From the IMG/VR virus record IMGVR_UViG_2703718769_000012: 7,207 nucleotides of DNA; one strand, written 5' to 3'. Within the stretch, counting starts at the first letter, position 1. Each line of letters starts with the position of its first letter. Origin of the DNA: a virus (lineage: Duplodnaviria > Heunggongvirae > Uroviricota > Caudoviricetes). Below the pieces are notes generated by a model. That model was not told where the DNA came from, searched no databases, and saw only the letters and a list, made by a program, of their open reading frames with translations. Both the position numbers and the translations under genes were made by a program. Below are positions 2,413 to 7,057 of the stretch, piece by piece.

Positions 2413-2592
2413 TTGCTATGGGTGGTTAATCATGCGTTAATGGTGTTCTGGTTTGTTACAAATTTATCTGAAGCAGTCATTGTTATAATTTTATTATTTG
2501 TACCTCTTGAGATTTCCTTGTTGGTTTTTCTCTCTGATATTTTTTTTCGGACCATTCTGCCCAAGGGCTAATTTCTTCAAAAGGTAATAATT
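2413..2592 (+). promoter_or_regulatory. cspI promoter and long cspA-type 5' leader with cold-box-like element
   Basis: Candidate sigma70 promoter: -35 TTGCTA (2413-2418), 17-bp spacer, TGn-extended -10 GTTAAT (2436-2441), predicted start near 2448 and leader about 145 nt. A second candidate is TGtTATAAT at 2481-2489. The leader start (GGTTTGTTACA...AAGCAGTC) resembles the cspA cold-box region, and AAGGTAATAATT precedes the ATG. Start sites are not determinable from sequence alone. Confidence 0.4.
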
Positions 2593-2805
2593 ATGTCTAA
2601 CAAAATGACTGGTTTAGTGAAATGGTTTAACCCTGAAAAAGGTTTTGGTTTCATCACGCCGAAAGATGGCAGCAAAGATGTGTTTGTCCATTTCTCAGCA
2701 ATTCAGAGCAACGATTTCAAAACATTAACTGAGAATCAGGAAGTTGAATTTGGTATTGAGAACGGACCTAAAGGTCCTGCCGCTGTTCATGTAGTGGCGC
2801 TTTGA
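2593..2805 (+). CDS. cspI: Cold-shock protein, CspA family (CspI)
   Basis: 70 aa, [38 protein letters not shown]...: cold-shock domain with RNP1 (KGFGFI) and RNP2 (VFVHF) motifs. Matches CspI as I recall it. AAGG Shine-Dalgarno 8 nt upstream. Confidence 0.95.
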
Positions 2806-2815
2806 GGTAGACAAT

Positions 2816-3004
2816 ATTACAAACCATATTCACTTTAGATGCCCGTGTTGTCATGGTTCCCAGTATAGAACATCATCTTTTGATGTTTCTGACATGAATC
2901 CTTTCGGGGCAAAATGTATCTTTTGTAAATCAATGATGATTACATTTGATAATATTTCACAATACTTAAATGCCAGCCGTCTGTCGTTGGATTTAAAAAA
3001 GTGA
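2816..3004 (+). CDS. Possible small zinc-ribbon protein with no canonical start codon (AUU start candidate, or frameshifted pseudogene)
   Basis: Frame open from 2795 to TGA 3002-3004, with CxxC-(21)-CxxC (RCPCCHGSQYRTSSFDVSDMNPFGAKCIFCKS). No in-frame ATG/GTG/TTG before the first Cys pair. GAGG (2804-2807, overlapping the cspI stop) sits 8 nt before an in-frame ATT at 2816, giving 62 aa. An ATG at 2839-2841 is out of frame by 1 nt across a CCC run. A terminator follows immediately. Confidence 0.3.
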   Translation: MTNHIHFRCPCCHGSQYRTSSFDVSDMNPFGAKCIFCKSMMITFDNISQYLNASRLSLDLKK

Positions 3005-3010
3005 AAATGA

Positions 3011-3032
3011 AGGCTCCTTCGGGAGCTTTTTT
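3011..3032 (+). terminator. Rho-independent terminator with UUCG tetraloop
   Basis: GGCTCC-ttcg-GGAGC hairpin (3012-3026) followed by TTTTTT (3027-3032), 7 nt after the zinc-ribbon ORF stop. Likely ends the cspI transcript. Confidence 0.75.
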
Positions 3033-3076
3033 GCTTGGTGTCTATTCGATGGATACTCACATACTACGGTAACATC

Positions 3077-3307
3077 ATGAAAAAAATCATAGTTTTTTTT
3101 AACTCTGAACCAGCAGTGGTAGTGCCAGCGATGACTGGAGTTAACACCATCATGCGTGAATATCCAAATGGCGAAAAAACACACCTTACTGTAATGGCCG
3201 CAGGGTTTCCATCTCTGACCGGAGATCATAAAGTCATTTATGTAGCCGCGGATCGACATGTTACTTCAGAAGAAATTCTGGAAGCAGCAATAAGGCTCTT
3301 GAGTTGA
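3077..3307 (+). CDS. ynfN: Small protein of the cold-shock cargo module (YnfN-like); start uncertain
   Basis: 76 codons from ATG 3077 (MKKIIVFFNSEPAVVVPAMTG...). Alternative starts are 3131 and 3152; the 3152 form is 51 aa, the length I recall for K-12 YnfN. Sits between cspI and gnsB as ynfN does in Qin. No strong Shine-Dalgarno for any start. Symbol rests on synteny and length, not recalled sequence. Confidence 0.5.
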   Translation: MKKIIVFFNSEPAVVVPAMTGVNTIMREYPNGEKTHLTVMAAGFPSLTGDHKVIYVAADRHVTSEEILEAAIRLLS

Positions 3308-5497: not shown

Positions 5498-5794
5498 GGT
5501 GCACATACCCATTCGATGACATTTGTTTCAGGTGGTTCCAGTGGTGCTCCGGGAAGTGGATCACCTGATTATTCTAAATACAGTGTTAACACTTCTTCTG
5601 CAGGCGCTCATACGCACTCTGTATCGGGTACTGCTGCAAGCGCAGGTGCACACGCACATACTGTCGGTATTGGTGCTCATACGCACTCCGTTGCGATTGG
5701 TTCACATGGACATACCATCACCGTTAACGCTGCTGGTAACGCGGAAAACACCGTCAAAAACATCGCATTTAACTATATTGTGAGGCTTGCGTAA
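5486..5794 (+). pseudogene. 3'-terminal fragment of side tail fibre gene stf (C-terminal ~100 codons)
   Basis: Ends ...[32 protein letters not shown], the lambda Stf C-terminus as I recall it, with GAHTHS/GAHAHT histidine repeats. Stop overlaps the tfa start (TAATG). The ATG at 5486 lies inside J-derived sequence and has no convincing Shine-Dalgarno. Confidence 0.75.
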
Positions 5795-6369
5795 TGGCAT
5801 TCAGAATGAGTGAACAACCACGGACCATAAAAATTTATAATCTGCTGGCCGGAACTAATGAATTTATTGGTGAAGGTGACGCATATATTCCGCCTCATAC
5901 AGGTCTGCCAGCAAACAGTACCGATATTGCACCGCCAGATATTCCGGCAGGCTTCGTGGCTGTTTTCAACAGTGATGAGGCATCGTGGCATCTCGTTGAA
6001 GATCATCGGGGTAAAACGGTTTATGACGTGGCATCAGGGGACGCGTTATTTATTTCTGAACTCGGTCCGTTACCGGAAAATGTTACCTGGTTATCGCCGG
6101 GAGGGGAATATCAGAAGTGGAACGGCACAGCCTGGGTGAAGGATACGGAAGCAGAAAAACTGTTCCGGATCCGGGAGGCGGAAGAAACAAAAAACAGCCT
6201 GATGCAGATAGCCAGTGAGCATATAGCGCCGCTTCAGGATGCTGTGGATCTGGAGATCGCAACGGAGGAAGAAACCTTGTTGCTGGAAGCCTGGAAAAAG
6301 TATCGGGTGTTGCTGAACCGTGTTGATACATCAACTGCACCGGATATTGAATGGCCAGCACTGCCGTAG
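5794..6369 (+). CDS. tfaQ: Tail fibre assembly protein (Tfa)
   Basis: 191 aa, [54 protein letters not shown]..., near-identical to lambda Tfa as I recall it. Coupled to the stf fragment by the TAATG overlap. Confidence 0.9.
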
Positions 6370-6466: not shown

Positions 6467-7057
6467 TTATATGTCAGGTGTCTGAAGTTTTGCTTTGGCT
6501 CTTAAAATGGTTTGCCGCGAGGTTTTGAATTCCCGGGCAATGGCACTTATACTTACACCTGACTTAATTCGTTCGAATACCACCTGTTTCTGTTCTTCAT
6601 TTAACACAGGTGGTCGACCAAAACGTTTCCCTGCGCCGCGGGCTCTTACTATCCCGGAATGAGTGCGTTCAAGTAAAAGGTCTCGTTCAAATTCAGCGAC
6701 TGCTGAAATTACGTGCATCATCATTTTTCCTGTTGGACTGGTCAGGTCAATGCCCCCCAATGCTAAGCAATGCACTCTGATACCTGTTTCGGTCAGTTGT
6801 TCCACTGTTTTCCTGATATCCATTGCATTACAACCAAGGCGATCCAGTTTTGTCACAATCAATTGATCACCACATTTCAGGCGAGCAAGCAACCGGTTAA
6901 AACCAGGACGCTCACTGGTTGCTGCTGAGCCGCTAATGTGTTCTTCGATTATTTGCTGAGGTTTGATTTTAAAACCTGCACTTTCGATTTCCCGGCGTTG
7001 ATTTTCGGTGGTCTGATCCAGCGTTGATATCCGACAGTAAGCAAAAATTCGAGACAT
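6467..7057 (-). CDS. pinQ: Site-specific DNA invertase, serine recombinase of the Hin/Gin/Cin/Pin family
   Basis: 196 aa. N-terminal catalytic motif Y-C-R-I-S-T-L-D-Q (catalytic Ser11), resolvase-type catalytic domain, C-terminal HTH ([20 protein letters not shown]). Appears intact. Lies next to tfa, as Pin genes do in e14, Rac and Qin. Confidence 0.93.

Follow-up and report, generated by a model that had tools for sequence, protein, structure and literature searches.

The cspI-ynfQ locus of the Qin prophage

The stretch of DNA analyzed here (hereafter the window; 7,207 nt) is the late region of the Escherichia coli Qin cryptic prophage, and an exact sequence match showed that its positions 2593–3072 are base for base those of E. 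coli K-12 MG1655. Within this segment, the cold-shock protein gene cspI is followed by a short frame that starts 10 nt further on and for which the original prediction had offered three explanations: rare initiation at AUU, a frameshifted pseudogene or sequencing error, or programmed frameshifting. We found that this zinc-ribbon frame is ynfQ, a cold-shock gene already described in E. coli and paralogous to ymcF (Table 1). In our assessment, 2816–3004 is best explained as the member of the ymcF/ynfQ pair of cold-shock small proteins that resides in the Qin prophage, namely ynfQ, with translation starting at AUU (probability roughly 0.93).

Table 1. Features of the window discussed in the text, with strand and the basis of each assignment.
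Feature	Position	Strand	Basis
ynfU, small zinc-binding protein	285–455	−	PF23499, E = 3.5e-31; NCBIfam NF038384
cspI mRNA leader and body	2447–2832	+	RF01766 match
cspI, cold-shock protein gene	2593–2805	+	RefSeq CDS, WP_000066495.1
Shine-Dalgarno GAGG of ynfQ	2804–2807	+	8 nt upstream of start codon; AGG conserved
ynfQ (b4724), 62-aa four-cysteine zinc-ribbon small protein, YmcF-like family	2816–3004	+	PF23641 match, K-12 identity
AUU (ATT) initiation codon of ynfQ	2816–2818	+	RefSeq/K-12 annotation, comparative codon count
Out-of-frame ATG with 9-codon frame (MPVLSWFPV, stop)	2839–2868	+	By-product of AGA-TGC (Arg8-Cys9), not a start
ynfR, 21-aa small ORF through the terminator, neighbor of ynfQ	3007–3072	+	RefSeq CDS
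Intrinsic terminator hairpin and U run, after ynfQ	3009–3037	+	Fold

The K-12 MG1655 record lists ynfQ (b4724; YP_009518790.1) at 1638256–1638444, between cspI and ynfR, an interval that corresponds to 2816–3004 of the window. The two copies share DNA, coordinates, neighbors (cspI, ynfR, ynfN, gnsB and ydfO) and the annotated ATT start, and we found no difference between them. RefSeq names the product of 2816–3004 "cold shock small protein YmcF" and labels the gene ynfQ, also ymcF. Two further RefSeq records, annotated by PGAP in other strains, carry a ynfQ CDS that maps to the same positions, and the annotated start is therefore the ATT. The locus is common in the species: of 5426 complete E. 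coli genomes, a 541-base query around it matched 2145, many of them with 100% identity and with cspI, ynfQ, ynfR and ynfN as the annotated features under the match, and the E. coli genome search returned 1575 records that were at least 99% identical.

ynfQ is a conserved coding unit

The frame had been described as open and as encoding two Cys pairs, and both points can be read directly from the sequence: it is open from 2795, following a TAG at 2792–2794, to a TGA at 3002–3004, and the translation contains C9-x-x-C12, 21 residues, and C34-x-x-C37. The suggestion that it is a real coding unit was borne out by the wider comparison. The ynfQ product matched Pfam family PF23641 (YmcF-like) at 109.9 bits against a cut-off of 27 (E = 6.9e-32), with residues 1–62 aligned to profile positions 1–62, a full-length match which argues that the frame is far beyond a chance ORF. 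We also identified 131 homologues at E ≤ 1e-3 across the Enterobacteriaceae, mostly of exactly 62 aa. Variation at the first, second and third positions of ynfQ codons 1–50 in 80 loci was 0.13, 0.07 and 0.39, respectively, as is typical of coding sequence, and none of these loci carried an insertion or deletion within the same codons.

Other family collections were less informative. No NCBIfam model scored above its cut-off for YnfQ, and PHROGs held no family for it. One candidate, the ECs_2282 family putative zinc-binding protein model (NF047912), was rejected at 17.8 bits against a cut-off of 37, the resemblance being a generic one between CxxC motifs.

The start codon of ynfQ is AUU

To compare start codons, we used 80 loci from one-genome-per-species collections, each from a different species of Enterobacteriaceae (loci L004–L083, in which the match starts mostly at position 1501), and read the codon where residue 1 aligns. 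The codon homologous to 2816–2818 was ATT in 60 loci, ATG in 16 and ATC in 4, such that its first two bases were invariant. In the 16 species with a plain ATG, this codon lies exactly at codon 1 of the long frame, and Atlantibacter reads ATT-ATG, with the ATG at codon 2. The paralogue ymcF likewise has ATT at this codon, at the same spacing from its TAAGG.

The sequence upstream of this codon gave a consistent picture. The predicted GAGG was confirmed 8 nt before the in-frame ATT that opens the 62-aa frame, and an AGG core was present upstream of the start in all 81 sequences, at 8 nt in 74 and at 7 nt in 7. Positions −11 and −9 of the Shine-Dalgarno never varied and position −10 varied at 0.09, compared with 0.3–0.7 for the flanking bases. 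We also confirmed that the window has no ATG, GTG or TTG in frame from the upstream stop codon to the first Cys, an interval in which L004–L007 match it exactly. Many loci have an in-frame stop codon 3–7 codons upstream with no canonical start between it and the ATT, which therefore leaves AUU as the only plausible start. Codons 1–8 varied by codon position at 0.17, 0.06 and 0.37, a pattern that the 30 nt upstream did not display, so selection on the protein sets in at the ATT or directly after it. Local RNA structure offered no explanation for the use of AUU, as 2780–2860 folded no better than shuffled sequences (z = −0.4).

Together with the RefSeq and K-12 annotations, these observations bear out the proposal of AUU initiation. 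Translation would start at the AUU at 2816 with initiator tRNA, directed by the GAGG 8 nt upstream, and YnfQ would therefore begin with Met. D'Lima and colleagues are said to have used comparative proteomics of cold-shocked cells to find YmcF and YnfQ, and reportedly identified the ATT start codons of both by mutagenesis. As conveyed by the papers that cite it, that work is the experimental proof of the ATT start (D'Lima et al., 2017); one of them refers to it (J Proteome Res 16:3722) on the subject of bacterial AUU starts (PMC10191623). Another lists an ATT start in three E. coli genes, namely infC, ymcF and ynfQ, the last misprinted as "ymfQ" (PMC6200909).

Coupling of ynfQ to the upstream csp gene

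The TGA stop codon of cspI (2803–2805) overlaps the Shine-Dalgarno of ynfQ (UGAGG), so the csp stop lies inside the element that precedes the AUU. This arrangement recurred in about 50 of the 80 loci, with UGAGG in the window versus UAAGG in most species, and a motif search placed the csp stop codon (TAA or TGA) 9–10 nt before the ynfQ/ymcF start in 50 loci. With the cspI stop forming part of this Shine-Dalgarno, ribosomes that complete cspI are released some 10 nt from the AUU, and this proximity probably aids the use of a weak start codon.

We compared start codons with respect to this context. By tblastn, a csp gene was adjacent in 53 of the 80 loci, where the start codon was ATT in 48, ATC in 4 and ATG in 1; the loci with no adjacent csp gene had ATG in 15 and ATT in 12, and 3 of those 12 had an ATG at codon 2. 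Such a split would fit a requirement for a strong start codon where the gene stands alone, a reading that we regard as possible rather than established. The ATG cases come from few lineages, mainly one clade of Klebsiella and Raoultella together with Silvania confinis (L082) and Citrobacter sedlakii (L013).

These data bear on a version of our main explanation in which YnfQ would be made mostly by ribosomes that end cspI and re-initiate 10 nt downstream, with its output tied to the translation of cspI and not to ribosomes that load independently. The embedding of the csp stop in the Shine-Dalgarno at 9–10 nt from the start in 50 loci speaks for this account, as does the prevalence of ATT next to csp genes relative to the loci without one. 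Against it, the ATG cases trace to few independent lineages, a good Shine-Dalgarno at ideal spacing could suffice on its own, and ATT is retained in Pseudescherichia, whose loci lack an upstream csp gene. We therefore consider dependence on re-initiation conceivable but doubtful, and, as the Pseudescherichia loci show, an AUU start does not depend on coupling to cspI. On a broader and tentative view, one that we think unlikely to be correct, the AUU and the csp stop within the Shine-Dalgarno could form a conserved coupling device by which YnfQ/YmcF needs ribosomes leaving csp and possibly responds to the level of IF3 in the cold; were this so, it would set a fixed low ratio of the zinc-ribbon protein to Csp.

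Other start sites and frames

Near-cognate starts are hard to place by sequence alone, a point in favor of translation from another such codon. One candidate is a second in-frame ATT at 2828, which encodes Ile5, a residue that at least 90% of the aligned sequences share. This codon lies 20 nt from the Shine-Dalgarno, however, which is beyond normal spacing, whereas the spacing to codon 1 is fixed at 7–8 nt in all loci. Residues 2–4 vary like coding sequence, codon 1 is itself ATG in 16 species, and curated annotations place the start at 2816, all of which make a start at 2828 very improbable.

The remaining readings depend on the ATG at 2839–2841, which had been noted as out of frame by one base and next to a CCC run (2842–2844). 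Both features are present, and the frame opened by this ATG reads MPVLSWFPV before a stop codon. The A of this ATG is the third base of the Arg8 codon (AGA) and its TG opens the Cys9 codon (TGC), so that the ATG arises only where Arg8 is encoded by AGA or CGA (28 of 81 sequences). In the other 53, Arg8 is CGC, CGT, AGG or CGG (one sequence has TGG) and the ATG is absent. The paralogue ymcF reads CGC TGT CCA at this site; because its Arg8 codon is CGC it has no out-of-frame ATG, and comparison of the homopolymer showed that it also lacks the CCC run.

According to one of these readings, the gene is a recent pseudogene or the product of a sequencing error, with ATG 2839 as the former start and the frame broken by a 1-nt change in the CCC run. 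An ATG followed by such a run, one base out of frame, is indeed what the sequence contains, but the comparison was not kind to this idea. The ATG depends on a synonymous choice of Arg8 codon and is missing from 53 of 81 sequences, and neither it nor the CCC run occurs in ymcF; initiation at 2839 would cost the protein its invariant Cys9 as well as the conserved residues 1–8, which show purifying selection; a single unbroken frame matches PF23641 from 1 to 62; and in none of the 80 loci does an ATG open a frame that runs into the zinc ribbon following an insertion or deletion at this site. Many independent assemblies agree at this site, which excludes a sequencing error: the DNA of the locus is 100% identical across many E. 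coli genomes that were sequenced independently. Since ATG 2839 is missing so often and its frame is only 9 codons long, the frameshift and pseudogene readings are refuted, and we attach next to no probability to the latter.

Programmed frameshifting, by which ribosomes would pass from the short ATG-2839 frame to that of the zinc ribbon and for which an ATG beside a C run is the sole pointer, can likewise be dismissed as having a negligible chance of being right, given that the upstream ATG is unconserved (28 of 81), the frameshifted product would lack Cys9, ymcF has no CCC, no conserved slippery heptamer is evident (the bases are the Cys9-Pro10-Cys11 codons, whose third positions vary), and a plain ATG stands at codon 1 of the long frame in 16 species.

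We conclude that ynfQ is neither a frameshifted nor a broken gene. Two class assignments were rejected in the same analysis: a frameshift gene of the prfB or dnaX kind, as the upstream ATG occurs in 28 of 81 sequences, CCC is absent from ymcF and one frame encodes the whole protein, and a frameshifted pseudogene, as codons 1–50 hold no insertions or deletions in 80 loci and vary at 0.13, 0.07 and 0.39 by codon position.

Transcript, terminator and cold induction

The Rfam cspA thermoregulator model (RF01766) matched the cspI transcript at 112.8 bits (gathering score 78; E = 5e-29) over model positions 1–428. The match passes the cspI stop codon and runs over the ynfQ Shine-Dalgarno and start codon. 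YnfQ would be made on the cold-stabilized cspI transcript, with a leader of the cspA thermoregulator type.

A strong terminator had been predicted 7 nt after the ynfQ stop codon, and we located the start of the G+C stem of a hairpin at precisely that distance 3′ of the stop. The structure (GGCUCC-UUCG-GGAGCU followed by U6) folded at −14.9 kcal/mol (z = −3.1 versus shuffled sequences). A scan for consensus terminators listed no plus-strand terminator here, although direct folding shows one. A hairpin followed by a T run was found after the stop codon in at least 50 of the 80 loci by a crude test that undercounts such structures. The cspI-ynfQ transcript probably ends mostly at this hairpin, just after ynfQ.

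With respect to expression, ynfQ has been described as "Qin prophage, cold shock induced", and the three columns of values reported for cspI, ynfQ and ynfN read 6.5, 5.9 and 5.8; 4.3, 4.0 and 9.9; and 38, 42 and 51, respectively, indicating that the three genes are co-induced at similar ratios (PMC11228462).

The YnfQ protein

YnfQ carries the motif FRCPCCHGSQ, then 21 residues, then CIFCK, with its four cysteines arranged as C9-P-C-C12 and C34-I-F-C37. In an alignment of 30 diverse members of the family, C9, C12 and C37 were invariant and C34 was at least 90% conserved; C11 and H13 were nearly invariant in the same set. An AlphaFold2 model of YnfQ had a moderate mean pLDDT of 74.6 and displayed short strands around the two Cys pairs, with residues 44–58 forming a helix. 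Searching this fold against the PDB with Foldseek gave no significant match, returning generic zinc ribbons only (such as TFIIE and eL43; best E = 0.83), and the YnfQ profile against PDB sequences gave chance-level matches to Rieske and UvrA motifs (best E = 0.048).

YnfQ is thus predicted to be a 62-aa protein with two Cys-x-x-Cys knuckles, most likely holding one zinc (or iron) ion, and a C-terminal helix. It has been modeled elsewhere as a rubredoxin-like metal-binding miniprotein (PMC13348028). As to its role, our best guess, held with low confidence, is that it may act as an accessory factor in the cold response, in association with nucleic acid or the ribosome, because the gene is linked to csp genes and the fold is that of a zinc ribbon.

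Prior annotation and what the comparison adds

The gene, its name, its link to cold shock and its ATT start are already known from the K-12 and RefSeq annotations and from the literature, so the locus carries little weight as a discovery. Our additions are modest and comparative only: the start-codon census, the csp stop codon within the Shine-Dalgarno, and the finding that phage records and PHROGs omit the gene. The locus is more useful as a calibration case, in which one of very few AUU-initiated E. coli genes was correctly picked from raw sequence. There is also a practical point. Among nine deposited records of phage genomes that encode YnfQ, five (H32–H35 and H37) have no annotated feature at the site, and ordinary gene callers still miss ynfQ with its ATT start.

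Relatives of ynfQ

The closest counterpart of ynfQ in E. coli is ymcF (b4723), which lies after cspG and encodes a protein that is also 62 aa long, belongs to the same Pfam family and is approximately 63–66% identical to YnfQ. Like ynfQ, ymcF has an ATT start, a Shine-Dalgarno (TAAGG) that overlaps the csp stop codon at equal spacing, a terminator a few nucleotides after its stop codon, and a gene of the ymcE/ynfN type followed by one of the gnsA/gnsB type downstream. The two differ in that ymcF is chromosomal, whereas ynfQ is prophage-borne.

The classic AUU-initiated gene of E. coli is infC, which encodes IF3, and its AUU underlies IF3 autoregulation. ynfQ shares the AUU start with infC, but the proteins are unrelated, and only the AUU codon itself is common to ynfQ and IF3-autoregulated genes of the infC type. 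We know of no IF3 feedback of the infC kind for ynfQ.

The same prophage also encodes YnfU, which is small and has two CxxC knuckles like YnfQ but belongs to a different family (PF23499 versus PF23641). Unlike ynfQ, ynfU has an ATG start in the window and no link to a csp stop codon. It bears no relation to ynfQ and lies between cspB and the lysis genes.

Neighboring genes and nomenclature

Downstream of ynfQ, the small gene ynfR runs through the terminator hairpin (3009–3037), and in the cspG locus (L084, 1548–1778) ymcE starts before the ymcF terminator. Given these overlaps, the downstream genes ynfR, ynfN and gnsB, as well as ymcE and gnsA, seem to depend on read-through. Csp proteins have antiterminator activity, and such read-through of the terminators would fit this activity. 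Tagged YnfR has been detected and was strongly increased after cold shock (VanOrsdel 2018; PMC6001520).

The next gene, ynfN (3077–3307, plus strand), starts 4 nt after ynfR and is 76 aa long as annotated by PGAP, compared with 51 aa in the K-12 record; phrog_3425 covers all 76 residues (E = 7e-54), and phrog_4911 covers residues 26–76 only. A list of uncharacterized Qin genes includes ynfN, ynfR, ynfQ and rzpQ, in that order (PMC11551758).

The name ynfQ has been used for another frame as well. In PMC6001520, "ynfQ" denotes a 37-aa ORF between ydfJ and ydfK, the sequence of which is identical to ynaM and which is not the zinc-ribbon ynfQ.

Further along the window, an Rfam match to IS009 (6137–6335, plus strand; 221.5 bits) falls inside a 191-aa ORF (5794–6369) and just upstream of a 196-aa minus-strand ORF (6467–7057).
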